From NCBI GenBank assembly GCA_035533215.1, contig DATLUG010000042.1:16330-80329 (forward strand): a stretch of DNA of 64,000 bases, written 5' to 3'. Position numbers and translations under genes: made by a program. Positions 37,362 through 45,031 of the stretch are shown one piece after another. Under the pieces are notes generated by a model, which was not told the origin of the DNA, ran no database searches, and saw nothing but the letters and a program-made list of their open reading frames with translations. The DNA is from Candidatus Micrarchaeia archaeon (GTDB taxonomy: Bacteria > Chloroflexota > Dormibacteria > Aeolococcales > Bog-877). The first letter of the stretch is position 1; each line of letters starts with the position of its first letter.

Positions 37362-37703
37362 GTGGTCCCCCCCGCCGAGCTCGCCCGCCCCACCCCCAGC
37401 GCCTTCGCGTACGACGAGCGAGCGCTGGCGCTGGTGGTCACCTGGGCCGACGGGCCGGTCCACCGGATCCGCTTCGCCGACCTGCGCCGAGCCTGCCCGT
37501 GCGCGGTCTGCAAGGGCGAGATGGGGCGCCCCGGCCGCTTCGACCAGGAGCCGAGCCTGCGGCCCGGGGAGGACGACCTCGTGACGATCGAGCTGGTGGG
37601 GCAGTACGCGGTCGGCGCCGAGTGGCGCGACGGACACCGGACCGGCATCTACAGCTTCGAGCGCCTCCGCCAGCTCGGCGACCGGCTGAGCACGGGGTCG
37701 TGA
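37362..37703 (+). CDS. DUF971-family protein
   Basis: LALVVTWADGPVHRIRFADLRRACPCAVCKGE...YAVGAEWRDGHRTGIYSFERLRQL. Confidence 0.8.
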   Translation: MVPPAELARPTPSAFAYDERALALVVTWADGPVHRIRFADLRRACPCAVCKGEMGRPGRFDQEPSLRPGEDDLVTIELVGQYAVGAEWRDGHRTGIYSFERLRQLGDRLSTGS

Positions 37704-38561: not shown

Positions 38562-38981
38562 TCAGGCGGGCGGAGCCGGGATGCGGTCGGGAGCGGCGTC
38601 GAGCAGGCGCCGGAGCATGGCCGCCACCACGGTGGGCTTGAAGGGTTTCAGGACCACTGGCACGGCGGCGTCCCGGCAGCGCGCCTGGGCGGCGGTGTCG
38701 CGCTGCTCCGGCATCAGCACCACCCCCGCCCGCGGGCGCCATGGCGCCGCATCGACGCGACCCGCCAGCGCGCATCCGTCCTCGTCGAGGGTGACGTCGC
38801 TGAGCAGGAGGTCGACATCGCCCGCCCGCAGCAGCGCCTCGGCGGCGGCGACGGTGCGCACCCAGGTGACCCGATGCCCCTCCATCCGAAGCTTGAACTC
38901 CAGGATGCGGCCGATCATCGGTTCGTCCTCGACGAGGACGATGTACGCAGCGTCCGCGGCGGGTGGCGGCGGACCCTGCAC
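38562..38981 (-). CDS. single-domain response regulator (receiver only)
   Basis: IVLVEDEPMIGRILEFKLRMEGHRV...DLLLSDVTL...VLKPFKPTVV. Only the last ~139 codons of the 1319-aa ORF-track ORF look real. GTG at 38981. Confidence 0.8.
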   Translation of the reverse strand: MQGPPPPAADAAYIVLVEDEPMIGRILEFKLRMEGHRVTWVRTVAAAEALLRAGDVDLLLSDVTLDEDGCALAGRVDAAPWRPRAGVVLMPEQRDTAAQARCRDAAVPVVLKPFKPTVVAAMLRRLLDAAPDRIPAPPA

Positions 38982-39107: not shown

Positions 39108-42100
39108 ATGGAGCGTCGCCCCGTGCCGCGCCGCCTTGGCCGCCCCCGCACGGGGCCGTCGCGGCCGCCCCGTCCGGGCGGGGCCGCGGGCTGGCCACGT
39201 CCCCGGCTGGACCTGCCCCTGATCGCCGCGCTGCTGACCCTGGCCGGCCTCGGGGTCCTCAACCTGATGGCGCTGGGGGAGGCCAGCCTCGCGGTGCATC
39301 AGGCGCTCATCGTCGTGGTGGGATTCATGGGCTGTGTCGCCGCCTGGCGGGTGCGGCGCGACGCCTGGCCCTGGATCGGGCGGGCGGTGTACGCGGGCAG
39401 TGTCGTCATGCTCCTCGCCGTCGAGGTCCACGGGGCACGCGCCTTCGGCGCCCGGCGGTGGCTGGTGGTGGGCTCCTTCGTCCTCCAGCCATCCGAGCTC
39501 GCCGAGCTTGGGCTTCTGCTGATCCTCGCCGAGGTGCTGAGCCATCCCCGGCTCTCCACCCTGCGCCGGGTCGGCCTCGCGCTCGGCCTGGCGGCGGTGC
39601 CGATCGGGCTGACCCTGCTGGAGCCGGACCTCAGCACCACCGGCCTCCTCGTCGTGATCCTCGCCGGCGGCCTGGTGCTGGCCCGGATCGACTGGCGCTG
39701 GCTCGCCGGCCTGGCGGTGGGCGCGATAGCGGTCGTGCCGCTGGGGCTCCACCTCCTGCGGCCCTACCAGCTCGCCCGGCTGCACGGCTTCCTCGGCGGC
39801 GGTGGGGGGTCGGCCGGTGCCGGCTGGACCGTGCTCCAGGCTCACGTGGCGATCGCCGCCGGGGGGCTGCTCGGCGCCGTCCGCTCGCCCCTCCACGGCC
39901 TCCTGGCCGCCTATCTTCCGGCACGGGAGACGGACCTCGCCTTCGCCAGCCTGGTCGAGTCGTGGGGCCTGGTGGCGGCGGCGGTGCTGCTCCTGGCGGT
40001 GGCGGTCCTGCTCTGGCGGCTGGTCCTGGCCGCCTCCCGGGCGCGCACCCAGCAGGGCGCCCTGGTCGCCGGCGGCCTGGCGATCCTGGTCGGGACCGAG
40101 ACCGCCGTGTCGATCGCGGGGAACCTCGGGGTCGGCCCGCTCGCCGGGATCCCCATCCCGCTGGTCAGCTACGGCGGAACCGCCGCGGTCGCCCATCTCG
40201 TCGCCTTCGGGATCGTGCTCGGCTCCCGCACCGACGCCCAGCGCCGACGCCTGTGGCGCGTCCCCTGGCGGCTGCGCGAGCGACCGCGCCTGATGGGTGG
40301 GCTCGGCCTGGTGCTGGTCGCCCTGCTGGTCGGGCTCGGCGCCCTCACCTATCGGCTCCAGGCGCTGCACGGGCCCGCCCTGCGCCAGACCGCGATCCAG
40401 GAGATGACCCGGTACGTCGCGCTGTCGCCCGCCCGGGGCGAGATCACCGATCGCCACGGGCACCTGCTCGCCGCCGACGTCCCGGCCGACCAGGTGGACG
40501 CGATCCCGGGGATCCTCCGGCCCGGGACGTCCGGCTTTCGCCGGCTGGCACGCCTGCTCCAGCGCCCCCCCGCGCGCCTGCGCCGCGCCCTCGCGGCGCC
40601 CGCGCCCGGCAACGGTTTCGCGGTGCCGCTGGCGGCCGCGGTCCCGGTGGCGGTGGGGCGGCGGGTCGCCCGCGCCGCGATCCCGGGGGTGCTTGTCATC
40701 GCCTCCGAGCGGCAGGTGTACCCGTACGGGTCCCTGGTGGGGCCGCTGGTCGGCTACACCGGCGTGGAGACCCCGACGGACGTTCGCCGGCTCGGACTCC
40801 TCCCGCCCGGCTCGGTGGTCGGGCGGGCCGGGCTGCAGCTCGAGTACGATCGGACGCTGCGCGGGCGGTTCGGGTCCCAGGCGGTGCTGGTGAACCCCGC
40901 CGGGAGGCCGATCGCGCTCGGGCCCGCGGTCGCTCCCCGCCCCGGCCGCACCGTCGAACTCAGCCTCGACCTCGGGCTCCAGGCCGCCGCCACCCGCGCC
41001 CTGCGGAACGCGATGGACGGGCGCTATCCCGGCTCGCAGACCGGAGACCAGGGTGCGGCGGTGGTCCTCGACGCCCAGACGGGTGCGGTGCTGGCGATGG
41101 CCAGTCTTCCCGCCTACGACGACAACGCCTTCGGCCCCCCGGTGGAGGGACCACGGCTCGCCCGCACCCTGCGCGCGCCGGGATCGCCCCTGCTCGAGCA
41201 CGCGACCCAGACCGCGCTGCCGCCGGGCTCGACCTTCAAGCTCGTGGTGGCGGCCGCCGACAGCGTCTACCGGGCGATCCCGCCCCAGCAGGTGATCCCG
41301 ACCGGTTACGCGTTCGCCTACGACGGCGCCAGCTATCACAGCTGGACGACCCTGCCGCCGCAGGACCTCGCCCAGGCCATCGCCTGGTCCAACGACGTCT
41401 ACTTCTACAAGCTGGCGCTGGCGCTGGGGCCGTCCCGCATCGTCGCCGTGGCCCACGCCCTCGGGGTCGGGCGGACGACCGGCATCGACCTGCCCGGCGA
41501 GAGCCCGGGGTTCCTCGGCACCCCGCAGACGGTGCGGCGGCTGGGCGCCACCTGGTACCCGGGCTCGACCGTCATCCTCGGCATCGGCCAGGGATACGTC
41601 ACCGCCACCCCGCTGCAGGTGGCGCGCTGGACCGCGGCCGACGTGACCGGGCGGCTGCTGACCCCGCGCCTCGGCCTGGCGGTGAGCGCGGGTCATGGCG
41701 CCGAGCGGCTCCCCCCGGGCCCCGCGAGCCCCCTGCCCTTCGCCGCCCGGCTGGCGCCGGTGCGGGCCGGCTTCCGCCTGGCGGTGACCCAGGGCACGGC
41801 ATCGATGCTGCTGGGGCTGGGGCTGGACGCGGGCGGCAAGACCGGCACCGCCCAGGACCCGTCGGCGCCCCACGGCGGCCCCGACGCCTGGTTCACCGCG
41901 GCGGCACCGATGCGGCAGCCCCAGGTGGTGGTGGCGGTGATGGTGCGCGGGGGCGGGGAGGGCTACTACGCCAGCCAGCCCGCGGCCAGGGCCATCCTCC
42001 AGTACTTCTTCGCCCACCGCCGCCAGATCCTCGCCACCGCCCCCCCGCCGGGCCTTCCGACCGCCGTCGAGGGAGCGCCGACCGCCGCCGCCTCCCACCG

Positions 42101-42221
42101 CCGGGCGCCGCGGCCGGCGGCGACCGCCTCCCCGCCCAGCCCGGGCCGCCGGGCGGGCGCCACCGGCCCGTGCCCGGCGGCGGCGGGTGAGCGATGCCGG
42201 CACCGCGGGCGGGCGCTGTGA
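39108..42221 (+). CDS. fused SEDS glycosyltransferase (RodA/FtsW family) and class B penicillin-binding protein (PBP2-like)
   Basis: Residues 1-~375 are multi-TM FtsW/RodA/SpoVE-like (LQPSELAELGLLLILA, GIPIPLVSYGGTA). After a basic linker and one TM (MGGLGLVLVALLVGLGALTY) comes a bPBP with STFK, SND-like (WSNDVYF) and KTGTA motifs. No stop or frame change between the two parts. Confidence 0.85.
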   Translation: MERRPVPRRLGRPRTGPSRPPRPGGAAGWPRPRLDLPLIAALLTLAGLGVLNLMALGEASLAVHQALIVVVGFMGCVAAWRVRRDAWPWIGRAVYAGSVVMLLAVEVHGARAFGARRWLVVGSFVLQPSELAELGLLLILAEVLSHPRLSTLRRVGLALGLAAVPIGLTLLEPDLSTTGLLVVILAGGLVLARIDWRWLAGLAVGAIAVVPLGLHLLRPYQLARLHGFLGGGGGSAGAGWTVLQAHVAIAAGGLLGAVRSPLHGLLAAYLPARETDLAFASLVESWGLVAAAVLLLAVAVLLWRLVLAASRARTQQGALVAGGLAILVGTETAVSIAGNLGVGPLAGIPIPLVSYGGTAAVAHLVAFGIVLGSRTDAQRRRLWRVPWRLRERPRLMGGLGLVLVALLVGLGALTYRLQALHGPALRQTAIQEMTRYVALSPARGEITDRHGHLLAADVPADQVDAIPGILRPGTSGFRRLARLLQRPPARLRRALAAPAPGNGFAVPLAAAVPVAVGRRVARAAIPGVLVIASERQVYPYGSLVGPLVGYTGVETPTDVRRLGLLPPGSVVGRAGLQLEYDRTLRGRFGSQAVLVNPAGRPIALGPAVAPRPGRTVELSLDLGLQAAATRALRNAMDGRYPGSQTGDQGAAVVLDAQTGAVLAMASLPAYDDNAFGPPVEGPRLARTLRAPGSPLLEHATQTALPPGSTFKLVVAAADSVYRAIPPQQVIPTGYAFAYDGASYHSWTTLPPQDLAQAIAWSNDVYFYKLALALGPSRIVAVAHALGVGRTTGIDLPGESPGFLGTPQTVRRLGATWYPGSTVILGIGQGYVTATPLQVARWTAADVTGRLLTPRLGLAVSAGHGAERLPPGPASPLPFAARLAPVRAGFRLAVTQGTASMLLGLGLDAGGKTGTAQDPSAPHGGPDAWFTAAAPMRQPQVVVAVMVRGGGEGYYASQPAARAILQYFFAHRRQILATAPPPGLPTAVEGAPTAAASHRRAPRPAATASPPSPGRRAGATGPCPAAAGERCRHRGRAL

Positions 42222-42243: not shown

Positions 42244-43257
42244 TCAGCCGTGGACCCCGGCGAAGGCGCTGACGATCCGAGGGTCGGCGAGGCAGGCCGC
42301 GGCGCCCTCGGCGACGCACGTGAGCGGCCGCTCAGCCAGCCGAACGGTGAACCCGAAGGCGTCCTCCAGCCTGGTCTCGAACCCCTCCAGGAGCGAGCCG
42401 CCGCCGAAGGCCAGGATGCCGTGCTGCATGATGTCGCCGACCGCCTGCGGGGGCAGGTCCTCCAGCGCGTTGGCGAGGGTGTCGATGATCCCGTCGACGG
42501 TCGGGCGGAGCGCCTCGGCAACCTCCCCGGGGGCCAGGGTGAGGAGCTTGGGGCGGCCGGTGACGAGGTCGCGGCCCTCGACCATCAGCGCCCCCTCGTC
42601 GGCATGGCCGTTGCGCAGCCGCATCTTGATGTCCTCGGCGGTGAGCTCGCCCACCAGGAGCTGGTGCTCCTGGCGCAGGTACTGGTACAGGGCGATCGTC
42701 ATCTCGTCGCCGGCGACGCGGCAGGAACGGGTGGTGAGGATCCCCCCGAAGCAGAAGGCGGTGACCTCCGCGGTGCCCCCGCCGACATCGACGACCATGT
42801 GCGCCTGCGGCTCCAGGGGGTCGATCCCGCTGCCGACAGCGCCCGCGATCGGCTCCGGGACCAGGTCGACGCGGCCCGCGCCCGACTCCTCGACCGCCTC
42901 GGTGAGCGCCTGACGCTCCAGCCCGGTGGCGCCGGCGGGGACGCCGGTGACGGCATGGGGGCGGAAGCGCTCCCAGGGACGCCGCGCCACCTGGTGGAGG
43001 ATGCCGATGATGAAGGTCCGGGCGGTCTGGAGGTCGGTGACGACACCGTCCCGGATCGGCCGGACCGTCAGCATCCCCACCGGGGTGCGCCCGGTCAGCT
43101 CGCGGGCCTTGTGGCCGATGAGGAGCGGCCGGCGGCCGCGTCCCCCCTCGGTCGGAACCACCATGACCGATGGCTCGTTGAGCAGGATGCCCCGCCGCGG
43201 ATGGCAGACCACGGTGTTGGCCGTGCCGAGGTCGATCCCGAAACCTGCAGACCACAC
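42244..43257 (-). CDS. mreB: rod shape-determining protein MreB
   Basis: GIDLGTANTVV, VTGVPAG, VVDVGGGTAEV, GGGSLL. GTG at 43257 with a GGGAG Shine-Dalgarno sequence 8 nt upstream. Confidence 0.95.
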   Translation of the reverse strand: MWSAGFGIDLGTANTVVCHPRRGILLNEPSVMVVPTEGGRGRRPLLIGHKARELTGRTPVGMLTVRPIRDGVVTDLQTARTFIIGILHQVARRPWERFRPHAVTGVPAGATGLERQALTEAVEESGAGRVDLVPEPIAGAVGSGIDPLEPQAHMVVDVGGGTAEVTAFCFGGILTTRSCRVAGDEMTIALYQYLRQEHQLLVGELTAEDIKMRLRNGHADEGALMVEGRDLVTGRPKLLTLAPGEVAEALRPTVDGIIDTLANALEDLPPQAVGDIMQHGILAFGGGSLLEGFETRLEDAFGFTVRLAERPLTCVAEGAAACLADPRIVSAFAGVHG

Positions 43258-43339
43258 GCCCGTCTCCCTGCTCCACCCGTGACGATCCACCTCAACCCGG
43301 CCACCTGGCGGGTGTGGGCCTCACTCTATACCCGGGACC

Positions 43340-45031
43340 GTGACTGACTCGATCACAACGCCGAATCCGTCACCGGGGTTCCGCCCCGGGACCGCGACCG
43401 CCCCAGAGCTGGTCCGTCGTCTCGGCAGCGGGAGCGCGGGCGAGACCTGGCGGGCGCGGCTCCCCGACGGCCGCTGGGTGGCGGTGAAGGTGCTCGCGCC
43501 CGCGGCCGCCGCCGCCCGCCGCGCGACCGCGTCGGACCAGGGCCTCCTGGCCCGGCTCGCCCACCCCCGGCTGGTGCCGGTGCACGCCGTGCTCGACCAG
43601 GGGGAGCGGCTGTGGGTGGTGCGCGCGCTGGCCCCGGGAGTGACGCTCCGCCGGCTGCGCTCGGTGGTGGAGCTCGCGCCGGGGCAGGTGGCCGCGCTGG
43701 GCACCGGCATCCTGGAGGCGCTCGACGGACTGCATCGCGCGGGCCTGCACCACGGGGGAGTGCAGCCCGACAACATCTGGGTGGATGAGGACGGGGCGGT
43801 GCGGATGGCGGACGCCGCGCTGCCGCGGGCGGGAGCGGCGCCCGGGCGTCGGGCCGGCGCGCGCGGCGCCGCCGACCGGAACGCCGCCGACCTGGCCGCC
43901 GCGGGCGGCCTCCTGGTCGCGGCCCTGGAGGCCGGGCCCCAGGCTCCGGAGGCGGCCCACGGGAGCCTGCTGGTCACCCCGGGGGCGTCCCAGCGCCCCC
44001 AGCTGCTGGCGGCGGCGCGGGCGCTGGTCGCCCTCGGGGACCGCGCGGGGCGGACGGCAGGGGGATCCCAGACCCCCGCGGGCGCCCCGCCGCCGACCAT
44101 CCTCGCCGACTGGGCTCGGGCGGCGGGCCCGCTCGCCGATCCGGCTTCCCGGGCCGTCTGCCTCGCCGAGCTCGGCGCCTTCGTCCGCCGCCTTCGACCG
44201 AGGGAGCCGGCCGGACCCGATGCGATGCCAGGCCCCGCTCCCGATCCGCGGCGGGCGGCCGTCCCAACGCTCGCCGCCCAGGCGCCGGCCGCCGCCCCGC
44301 GGCCCCCTCCGGTCCCCGCCCCGCCGAGACACCCCCACCGAGCGGGGAGGGGGGCGGCGGCGGCGATGGCGGCGGCGCTCGTGCTCGGGGGCGTCGGCGC
44401 CGTCGTGCTCGCCCTCGCCCTCGGCGCCCATCCCGCGCCGCGGGGGGCGGACCAGCCCTCCGGCTCGCGGTCGCCGACGGTCCCGGCCGGAGCGCCGGCC
44501 CGCCCGCACCCGTCGGCGCGGACATCCGCGCCGACGCGGCGCGGGCCGACCGGGACATCCCGGCGGCGGGCCGCCGCGGCCGCCTCCCCGCAGCCCGCGC
44601 GGGCCCCCGGGCGCCCGCACCGGGCCGCCTCCCTCCCGCGGGGACTCGCCCCGCTGCCGTCGCTGGGGCCGGGGTCGGCCGGAGCGGTCCAGCGGGTCTC
44701 GATGCGCACCGCGCCGGACGGCTGCACCCGCTCGTCCGCGGGCTGCAGCGTGACCATCCGGATCGACCTCGGCTCCCATCCCGCCGAGCCGATCGGCTGG
44801 GCCCTGGAGCTCGTCGACGCCTGCACCGGCCGTGTCACCCCCGGGCCCGCCGGCAGCTACACCGCGCCCGCTCCCTACACCTATGTGGAGGCGCAGGCGA
44901 GCGTCACGCCGGCGACGGTCGCCGCCGGCGGCCGGGTCCCGGTGGCGGTGGTGGCGGTGACCACGTTCCCGGCGCGGGCGGCCGCGACGCCGACCTACCT
45001 GGTCCCGCCGGGCGCGTCCTGCACGGCCTGA
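43340..45031 (+). CDS. membrane protein with degenerate Ser/Thr kinase-like (pseudokinase) domain
   Basis: GSGSAGETW G-loop and a VAVKVL lysine. The catalytic loop reads LHHGGVQPDN (HRD Asp and Lys absent) and there is no DFG. A P/A-rich linker, one TM (AAAAMAAALVLGGVGAVVLALAL) and a ~150 aa extracytoplasmic tail with 4 Cys. Confidence 0.75.
   Translation: MTDSITTPNPSPGFRPGTATAPELVRRLGSGSAGETWRARLPDGRWVAVKVLAPAAAAARRATASDQGLLARLAHPRLVPVHAVLDQGERLWVVRALAPGVTLRRLRSVVELAPGQVAALGTGILEALDGLHRAGLHHGGVQPDNIWVDEDGAVRMADAALPRAGAAPGRRAGARGAADRNAADLAAAGGLLVAALEAGPQAPEAAHGSLLVTPGASQRPQLLAAARALVALGDRAGRTAGGSQTPAGAPPPTILADWARAAGPLADPASRAVCLAELGAFVRRLRPREPAGPDAMPGPAPDPRRAAVPTLAAQAPAAAPRPPPVPAPPRHPHRAGRGAAAAMAAALVLGGVGAVVLALALGAHPAPRGADQPSGSRSPTVPAGAPARPHPSARTSAPTRRGPTGTSRRRAAAAASPQPARAPGRPHRAASLPRGLAPLPSLGPGSAGAVQRVSMRTAPDGCTRSSAGCSVTIRIDLGSHPAEPIGWALELVDACTGRVTPGPAGSYTAPAPYTYVEAQASVTPATVAAGGRVPVAVVAVTTFPARAAATPTYLVPPGASCTA

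Follow-up and report, generated by a model that had tools for sequence, protein, structure and literature searches.

A RodA/PBP2-type SEDS-bPBP fusion in a single open reading frame beside mreB in a Dormibacteria genome

The fused gene and its two halves

A gene of a Dormibacteria MAG, from an uncultured soil bacterium, was found to encode a SEDS (RodA-type) glycosyltransferase and a class B PBP (bPBP, PBP2-type) as a genuine fusion in a single open reading frame. It was located in a 64,000-nucleotide stretch of DNA, which as a whole is referred to here as the window. As the preliminary description had claimed, the frame at 39108..42221 on the forward strand (coordinates including the stop codon) ran without an internal stop and encoded 1037 aa, or ~110 kDa. 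The letters quoted in that description were all found, namely the stretch ...PLVSYGGTAAVAHLVAFGIVLGSR, the linker TDAQRRRLWRVPWRLRERPRL, MGGLGLVL, STFK (S708-K711) and KTGTA (from K911), and the HMM scan that it proposed matched all three domains in the same frame. These were FTSW_RODA_SPOVE at residues 58-371 (39279..40220; 9e-60), PBP_dimer (PF03717) at residues 440-602 (40425..40913; 9e-21, 75.6 bits) and Transpeptidase (PF00905) at residues 649-965 (41052..42002; 3e-45, 155.3 bits), so that the GTase, pedestal and TPase domains followed one another in one polypeptide. The call of the fused gene drew on the single frame, Pfam, NCBIfam, homologues and contig support.

The remaining parts of the chain, also on the forward strand, were delimited by other evidence. 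A cytoplasmic linker (residues 375-396, RTDAQRRRLWRVPWRLRERPRLM, 40230..40295) was placed by conservation and spacing. It was followed by the bPBP membrane anchor and stalk helix (residues ~397-432, 40296..40403), which corresponded to an AF2 helix at 394-432 and aligned to the TM region of E. coli PBP2 from residue 22. The Pro/Ala/Arg-rich C-terminal tail (residues 976-1037, 42033..42218) was poorly conserved and predicted to be disordered; the homologue alignment broke down there and the AF2 pLDDT was <50 for residues 980-1037. The AF2 model as a whole, of moderate confidence (pLDDT 73, pTM 0.59), placed ten SEDS helices first, then a short cytoplasmic linker, the bPBP membrane helix, the pedestal and the transpeptidase. 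This arrangement agreed with the earlier suggestion that the topologies of the two halves were compatible.

The top NCBIfam models for the frame were pbp2_mrdA and rodA_shape, and both halves were closer to RodA/PBP2 than to FtsW/FtsI in NCBIfam and in the PDB sequence search. The trusted cut-offs of the two equivalogs were not reached (368 bits vs 455 for TIGR03423 and 218 vs 336.7 for TIGR02210), and the fusion was therefore considered RodA/PBP2-like rather than a certified orthologue. The annotation 'FtsW/RodA/SpoVE family cell cycle protein' should be replaced by that of a RodA/PBP2-type bifunctional synthase.

The catalytic motifs were intact in both halves. The SEDS half, with helices between residues 36 and 379 of the AF2 model, scored 202.9 bits against PF01098 (cut-off 26.4) and covered profile positions 34-348 of 356, and its closest PDB sequence was E. 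coli RodA (8tj3_B, 1.3e-39), compared with 1.5e-24 for FtsW. Its residues W118, R117, E130 (in QPSE), D174, P271 and the catalytic D276 were invariant in 22 fused homologues. Mapped by motif and spacing, they matched residues discussed for E. coli RodA, where W102, R101, E114, D159, P257 and the neighbouring catalytic Asp D262 are the counterparts (PMC10449877). The clade to which the window belongs had a Glu (E133) at a site that was Lys in the other members and in E. coli RodA (K117); the equivalent SpoVE mutant has been reported to be defective in vivo (PMC10449877).

In the bPBP half, the TPase motifs S708-T-F-K711 (SxxK), S761-N-D763 (SxN/D) and K911-T-G913 (KTG) were all invariant among the fused homologues, and Foldseek against PDB chains matched the fusion model to E. 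coli and Y. pestis PBP2 with TM 0.72-0.74. We also considered whether this half resembled an 'activated', MreC-independent PBP2. This reading was rejected since L61 of E. coli PBP2 aligned with Y436 and not with an Arg (cf. L61R); relatives had W, C or A at the position, and the preceding R435 (E. coli K60) was invariant.

Relatives, neighbouring genes and the likely role of the module

Relatives were sought with a 151-aa probe spanning the junction, a search that the preliminary description had recommended. The best 120 protein clusters all carried the three domains in the fused architecture, and all 60 junction-spanning loci, from Dormibacteria and cultured Actinomycetota, were fused as well. 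Together with the 117 such fusions counted in InterPro by a 2025 survey (PMC12516126), these numbers corrected the earlier belief on rarity, as natural SEDS-bPBP fusions were not very rare. A tree was built from the 57 of the 60 loci with a confirmed open frame of >=900 aa, the frames being anchored by tblastn. All 57 fused sequences formed one clade against unfused PBP2s (SH-aLRT 100), which was common to Actinomycetota and Dormibacteria. The window protein shared this clade with members from Pseudonocardiales, Geodermatophilales and Propionibacteriales, and it was 51-53% identical to those of Nocardioides and Carbonactinospora. The tree thus points to common descent of the fusion with the actinobacterial bifunctional bPBPs.

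Next to the fusion, an mreB gene was found at 42244..43290 on the reverse strand (Pfam MreB_Mbl, 3.9e-92), convergent as previously described, the two stop codons being 22 nt apart. It encoded the sole MreB of the source genome. An adjacent mreB was present in ~50 of the 60 fused loci, usually in convergent orientation, and in all 20 genomes of the order with this MreB type the fusion lay beside it. Beyond mreB, a gene at 43340..45031 on the forward strand encoded a bitopic protein of 563 aa with an N-terminal kinase-like domain (Pkinase N-lobe match, 2.5e-12) whose catalytic motifs were degenerate. A TM helix and a Pro-rich spacer separated this domain from a C-terminal ectodomain, which was conserved beside the fusion. 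The ectodomain, of ~115 aa, had four invariant Cys (C22, C29, C55 and C121) and an invariant W47, and it adjoined the fusion in 52 of the 60 loci. Its AF2 model was a six-strand beta-sandwich (pLDDT 83) with weak structural matches to Ig-like, ApaG or Asf1 folds (E >=0.008, TM ~0.5). The possibility that this protein was a hidden MreC was rejected since Pfam was searched without a match up to E=10 and the AF2 fold was not MreC-like. On the other side, the divergent receiver-only response regulator noted earlier was located at 38562..38981 on the reverse strand (Pfam Response_reg, 1.1e-9; start codon uncertain), and it was kept at this position only in the Dormibacteria clade of the window. Sigma-70 and terminator patterns were searched for and none were found, and a search for RNA runs was likewise empty.

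The absence of mreC and mreD from the window, pointed out in the preliminary description, extended to the source genome and 40 relatives. Namely, profiles for MreC, MreD and RodZ_C (PF04085, PF04093 and PF13464) had zero matches in all 41 genomes of the order and were positive in control genomes, although very divergent homologues could escape such profiles. Judged by these three proteins, the set was not a canonical Rod complex (MreBCD-RodZ-RodA-PBP2). Genomes of the sister family without the fusion likewise lacked detectable MreC, MreD and RodZ. Thus, their absence was a lineage trait, and we rejected the idea that it was a consequence of the fusion. The context had also been called unusual; an adjacent mreB without mreC and mreD was indeed seen, but such a context was the rule for the fused family.

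We consider it likely that the one-chain RodA/PBP2-type synthase and the adjacent MreB form a compact elongation-type module without MreC, MreD and RodZ, probably together with the bitopic partner. In such a module, the ten SEDS helices would polymerise lipid II. The conserved cytoplasmic linker (~20 residues) would lead into the PBP2-type membrane helix, which could pack back on the SEDS helices in the manner of the two-protein complex, and the pedestal and transpeptidase would cross-link the new glycan. The synthase would work with MreB and probably also with the bitopic protein. The fusion is probably enzymatically active, and its product would stay uncleaved and take part in lateral wall growth.

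A rather unlikely alternative is that the fusion is an accessory, conditional wall synthase (for a resting-cell or spore-like wall, stress or shape change) controlled by the regulator and kinase-like neighbours, and it is indeed flanked by the receiver-only regulator and the kinase-like bitopic protein. The spread of the module was patchy, as the fusion and mreB, present or absent as a unit within the family of the window, were both absent from 7 of its 25 genomes, and 2-5 GT51 enzymes were encoded in every genome examined. Some lineages can therefore dispense with the module, and its role may be conditional. In addition, the sharing of a single clade by two phyla points to an accessory unit that can be transferred. 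Among Actinomycetota, the carriers of the fusion belong to groups that grow at the poles or sporulate, and MreB in Streptomyces serves spore-wall synthesis. However, the relatives were MAGs of 75-95% completeness, so that incompleteness could explain some of the absences. Moreover, the source genome had this RodA/PBP2-like pair and one FtsW/FtsI pair elsewhere but no separate MrdA, and a sole RodA/PBP2-like pair with a sole MreB is what would be expected of a primary elongation system.

The linker and the junction

[quoted passage not shown] Its motif RRRLW...RPRL was kept among the fused homologues and its length was near-constant, the distance from SYGGT to RGxITDR being 84 aa in 47 of 53 fused sequences. 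L382 and W383 were invariant, and P393, R394 and L395 were at least 90% conserved. In contrast, M396, the ATG of MGGLGLVL, was not conserved, almost every homologue having V, A, S or L instead. Thus, there was no conserved internal start, and this spoke against initiation at that ATG, which the preliminary description had named as a possible argument against a fusion. An out-of-frame TGA overlapped the M396 ATG (TGATG at 40291-40295). A relic overlap of a rodA stop and a pbpA start was rejected as its origin; since the linker was conserved at the protein level in the fused frame and M396 was variable, the TGATG was considered coincidental.

It could be argued that the one frame gives rise to two proteins, through internal initiation or proteolysis of the linker, with the fusion merely ensuring 1:1 co-expression. 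An in-frame ATG exists in the source genome, the linker was Arg-rich and of low AF2 confidence (residues 381-386), and synthetic RodA-PBP2 fusions have been reported to be cleaved to a minor extent (PMC6207328). We regard this as very unlikely because the ATG was not conserved, the family had no conserved ribosome-binding or start signal, and the invariant LW, conserved PRL and fixed length are more readily explained by a linker with a structural or binding function than by a spacer that could be dispensed with.

At a G+C content of ~76% the source genome had long open frames in all frames, and the open frame by itself was therefore little proof; the case for the fusion rested on conservation, on support from reads and on the presence of both domains in the same frame. 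In three soil metagenome runs, which may include the source sample of the MAG, independent Logan contigs covered 39900-40700 at a depth of 25-34 with zero indels, and differed by two substitutions only (40573 and 40616), both outside the junction. Neither a stop nor an indel, which the preliminary description had named as refuting the fusion, was thus seen at the junction in these contigs. An artefact (rodA and pbpA being two genes in reality, merged by a missed stop, a frameshift or a chimeric assembly) might be suspected in an 82%-complete MAG of such base composition with a TGATG resembling a classic stop/start overlap, but it was effectively refuted by the indel-free contigs, by the same one-frame junction in 3 of 3 genomes of the genus and in 60 loci, some of them from cultured strains with complete genomes, and by a linker conserved as protein where M396 was not.

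Comparison with known systems

It has previously been reported that Actinomycetes encode 'bifunctional class B PBPs', chimeras of GTase, pedestal and TPase with an mreB neighbour, the type example being a 947-aa protein of Rhodococcus jostii RHA1 (microLife 2025, PMC12516126). Natural SEDS-bPBP fusions were also noted by Nygaard et al. 2023 (PMC10449877). The window protein is of this known kind, mreB neighbour included, and what is new here is the Dormibacteria member, from a further phylum. It shared with the bifunctional bPBPs (PMC12516126) the order SEDS-pedestal-TPase, a length of ~950-1040 aa, the adjacent mreB, coexistence with a separate FtsW/FtsI pair and the lack of a separate MrdA. 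It differed from them in its host, as Dormibacteria were not named in that survey, and its clade differed in the convergent mreB, the kinase-like bitopic partner beyond mreB, the divergent receiver-only regulator upstream and the Glu at the position equivalent to RodA Lys117. Another type, the SEDS-PbpA fusions of Coriobacteriia and Chloroflexota, also joins SEDS and a penicillin-binding module in one chain, but these have a PBPA_dimer domain and, in some of them, dead transpeptidase motifs, whereas in the window protein the pedestal was the canonical one (PF03717) and the motifs were intact.

The two-protein RodA-PBP2 complexes (T. thermophilus 6PL5 and E. coli 8TJ3) had the same catalytic motifs and fold as the fusion, with only ~25-30% sequence identity, and the host of the fusion differed in having no detectable MreC, MreD or RodZ. 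Synthetic RodA-PBP2 fusions of the same order, with linkers of 8-15 residues, have been shown to be active and functional (PMC6207328; PMC10449877), and the single-chain topology is therefore workable. Their linkers were Gly/Ser spacers, unlike the conserved sequence of the natural one.

In E. coli, MreB binds both the RodA C-tail and the N-terminal cytoplasmic region of PBP2 (PMC13327600). Since the natural linker is composed of just these MreB-binding elements, it may by analogy be a docking site for MreB, its binding being putative. Moreover, an E. coli minimal elongasome of MreB and activated RodA-PBP2 variants without MreCD and RodZ has been described (mLife 2026, PMC13327600). The component set, MreB and synthase only, was as in the window module, but in E. 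coli the system depends on activating mutations and is only partly functional, whereas the arrangement in the window is natural. We tentatively suggest, as a possible extension of the compact elongation-type module, that the fusion, MreB and the four-Cys bitopic protein could constitute a self-contained minimal elongasome with no need of MreC, MreD and RodZ that was passed as a whole between Actinomycetota and Dormibacteria, with the linker as the MreB dock and the bitopic partner in the extracytoplasmic regulatory role of MreC.

The practical gain for the window is a modest one, in that reading the gene as one protein is correct and the family now extends to Dormibacteria. More broadly, natural single-chain SEDS-bPBP synthases are nature's counterpart of the engineered fusions used for the RodA-PBP2 structure. 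Their conserved linker of fixed length, their mreB neighbour and the absence of MreC, MreD and RodZ from their hosts make them a simple system for studying the coupling of the cytoskeleton to wall synthesis, and the same system could show what the accessory elongation proteins are really needed for.

The fused reading frame and its domains

The gene at window positions 39108-42221 (+) was one continuous open reading frame of 1037 codons with no interruption, as the preliminary description had stated. The three domains for which that description had proposed a scan were all matched by Pfam, namely FTSW_RODA_SPOVE at residues 58-371 (9.4e-60), PBP_dimer at residues 440-602 (8.7e-21), and Transpeptidase at residues 649-965 (2.8e-45). 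The top NCBIfam models were pbp2_mrdA and rodA_shape, both under their equivalog cut-offs. By sequence match, the SEDS half was nearer to E. coli RodA (1.3e-39) than to FtsW (1.5e-24), and the nearest sequences to the bPBP half were the PBP2 proteins of T. thermophilus and E. coli. Since the G+C content of the window was about 76% and spurious frames of more than 1000 aa were present in other frames, the open frame alone was weak evidence; the weight rested on both domains sharing one frame and on the comparative and read evidence. The observation of a SEDS-bPBP fusion gene was confirmed, and its first reading as a RodA/PBP2-type protein was supported.

Among 22 homologues, the SEDS residues D276 (TDLAFAS; D262 of E. 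coli RodA), P271, W118, R117, E130, and D174 were invariant, as were the bPBP motifs S708xxK711, S761-N-D763, and K911-T-G913; the roles of these residues in E. coli have been described (PMC10449877). There was one deviation: E133 (codon 39504-39506) replaced the Lys of the SEDS QPSExxK motif (K117 of E. coli RodA). The window shares this Glu with those of its Dormibacteria relatives that are at least 56% identical, while every other fused member has retained Lys. The K117N substitution was mild in vitro, while the equivalent SpoVE mutant was severely defective in vivo. The AF2 model of the fusion (pLDDT 73, pTM 0.59) placed the SEDS helices at residues 36-379, a low-confidence stretch at 381-386, and a long helix at 394-432, followed by the pedestal, the transpeptidase, and a disordered tail at 980-1037. 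Its best PDB matches were PBP2 structures (TM 0.72-0.74).

The junction and its linker

Logan contigs from three soil-metagenome runs covered positions 39900-40700 at a word depth of 25-34; the junction, where a missed stop or frameshift had been a concern, was reproduced with no insertion or deletion. The contigs differed from the window by two substitutions only (40573 and 40616), both off the linker (40230-40295) that connects the final SEDS helix to the membrane helix of the bPBP. Since the sample from which the MAG was assembled may be among those sequenced in the three runs, this result shows assembly reproducibility rather than fully independent support.

The independent support for the junction is its conservation. 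A search of 5.8 billion proteins gave 708 relatives, and the best 120 of these all had the three Pfam domains and a length of 934-1126 aa; they came mainly from Candidatus Dormibacteraeota MAGs, but cultured Carbonactinospora thermoautotrophica and Nocardioides terrisoli, whose genomes are complete, also contributed. With a 151-aa junction probe, scored as present where its whole length aligned within one open frame, the suggested search of related genomes found the same junction in 3/3 genomes of the genus, 14/21 other genomes of the family, and 2/16 of the sister family; in a further family genome (G130) the fusion gene was cut by the contig end. Alignment of the probe to GTDB species genomes gave 60 junction-spanning loci, with named strains of Pseudonocardia, Geodermatophilus, Modestobacter, Blastococcus, Trujillonella, and Nocardioides among them, and in nearly all of them one unbroken frame ran for 944 aa or more. 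Three loci (L036, L064 (= G143:C68), and L086) matched the whole fusion with a broken open frame (479-603 aa); the break marks either a frameshifted pseudogene or an error in the MAG sequence.

The linker was kept in the 22 homologues, which are 51-80% identical to the fusion, with the consensus RRDxxRRRLWxxPxRxRxRPRL; L382 and W383 were invariant, and P393, R394, and L395 were each at least 90% conserved. The spacing from the SEDS SYGGT to the bPBP RGxITDR motif was 84 residues in 47 of 53 sequences (range 82-85). The in-frame ATG of M396, previously flagged as a possible internal start, was not conserved, being V, A, S, or L elsewhere. Therefore, an out-of-frame TGA over this ATG was rejected as a relic stop/start overlap and considered a coincidence. 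Since engineered RodA-PBP2 fusions are functional with linkers of 8 or 15 residues, the natural linker of about 20 residues is long enough.

Conserved neighbors and the Rod gene inventory

Pfam bore out the convergent mreB gene at 42244-43290 (-), whose stop codon is separated by 22 nt from that of the fusion. An mreB gene was directly downstream of the fusion in about 50 of the 60 loci, mostly convergent and co-directional in four (e.g., L069 of P. thermophila); in Carbonactinospora and L005 the 3' ends of the two genes overlapped. Thus, the fusion-mreB pair was the rule for the fusion family. The fusion adjoined the high-scoring MreB type (293-320 bits) in 20/20 such genomes of the order, and both were missing from seven genomes of the window's family. 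Several genomes without the fusion (G127, G131, G133, G140, and others) carried an approximately 274-aa frame whose match to the MreB profile was confined to positions 1 to 150-173 (about 80 bits); this short actin-fold frame also occurred in some fusion carriers.

Beyond mreB, at 43340-45031 (+), we found a 563-aa bitopic protein whose N-terminus matched only the protein-kinase N-lobe in Pfam. Its HRD and DFG motifs were degenerate by eye (HHG in HHGGVQPDN, and ADA), and it may be a pseudokinase. The weakly kinase-like cytoplasmic part was seen in Dormibacteria only. The C-terminal ectodomain of about 115 aa, in which four Cys and one Trp were invariant, adjoined the fusion in 52 of the 60 loci. 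In Actinomycetota the partner was directly upstream of the fusion and co-directional (in L069 the order was partner, fusion, mreB), while in the window's clade it was beyond mreB. The ectodomain had no Pfam match and was predicted to form a six-strand beta-sandwich (pLDDT 83), for which structure searches gave weak generic Ig-like neighbors only, none of them MreC-like.

The divergent receiver-only response regulator noted earlier was also recovered by Pfam at 38562-38981 (-). Together with a GBBH-like_N protein at 37362-37703 (+), it kept its position upstream of the fusion across the window's Dormibacteria clade (L003, L027, L029, L047, L058, and L060); neither was there in Actinomycetota.

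The search for separate copies showed that the MAG (2.6 Mb, 82% complete) had only two SEDS and two bPBP genes, one of each joined in the fusion and the others forming an FtsW/FtsI pair on contig C37, as well as one MreB and three GT51 genes. The lack of mreC and mreD in the window extended to the other genomes searched: MreC (PF04085), MreD (PF04093), and RodZ_C (PF13464) had no match in any of 41 genomes of the order, while control genomes were positive. Sister-family genomes with another MreB type and no fusion likewise had no match, which ruled out the absence as a result of the fusion and made it a lineage trait.

Origin of the fusion and its relation to known proteins

A tree of the bPBP half, for which unfused PBP2s served as outgroups, united the 57 fused sequences in one clade (SH-aLRT 100), where Dormibacteria were monophyletic (98) and placed among three or four lineages of unsettled order. 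The full-length tree, disregarding the 12 wrong-frame rows that it took in, made Dormibacteria sister to the Nocardioidaceae/Jatrophihabitans clade (100). MreB identities followed the same pattern (59-65% to Nocardioidaceae-type loci vs 42-55% to Pseudonocardia and Geodermatophilaceae). The simplest reading of these sequences is one fusion origin, after which the fusion-mreB pair crossed between phyla at least once. The window's closest relative, L027 (DATKRN010000040.1; fusion 77% identical, MreB 94%), is labeled Verrucomicrobiia, and L030 (DASQAY010000008.1) Candidatus Eisenbacteria; both grouped within the Dormibacteria clade, and these MAG labels look wrong. Two Clostridia rumen MAGs (L096 and L106) matched fusion residues 29-952 at about 28% identity, in L106 as one open frame of 891 aa, with no mreB seen nearby; they may represent a separate SEDS-bPBP fusion lineage.

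The existence of SEDS-PBP fusions in a single ORF has previously been reported, with reference to the RHA1 genome (Nygaard et al. 2023, PMC10449877). A 2025 survey (PMC12516126) collected 117 proteins from InterPro that combine GTase, pedestal, and TPase and called them "bifunctional bPBPs". They predominate in Geodermatophilales, Pseudonocardiales, Propionibacteriales, and Mycobacteriales, coexist with FtsW/FtsI in hosts mostly without canonical MrdA, and the R. jostii RHA1 gene has mreB as a flanking gene. The window fusion was alike in its mreB neighbor and coexisting FtsW/FtsI. Since that survey reports both, the fusion and its mreB neighbor are already described, bioinformatically only, and the window fusion is a member, in a further phylum, of this known kind. 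Our analysis adds the Dormibacteria membership, the conserved linker of fixed length, the finding that the fusion and its mreB are strictly present or absent together, the bitopic protein as a third conserved partner, and a connection to E. coli work from 2026 (PMC13327600). In that work, MreB is bound both by the C-tail of RodA and by the N-terminal cytoplasmic region of PBP2, and MreB with activated RodA-PBP2 is a sufficient minimal elongasome without MreCD or RodZ. Because these two MreB-binding elements are exactly what the linker consists of, the natural linker is a candidate MreB dock. The minimal-elongasome reading would be of more interest if shown.
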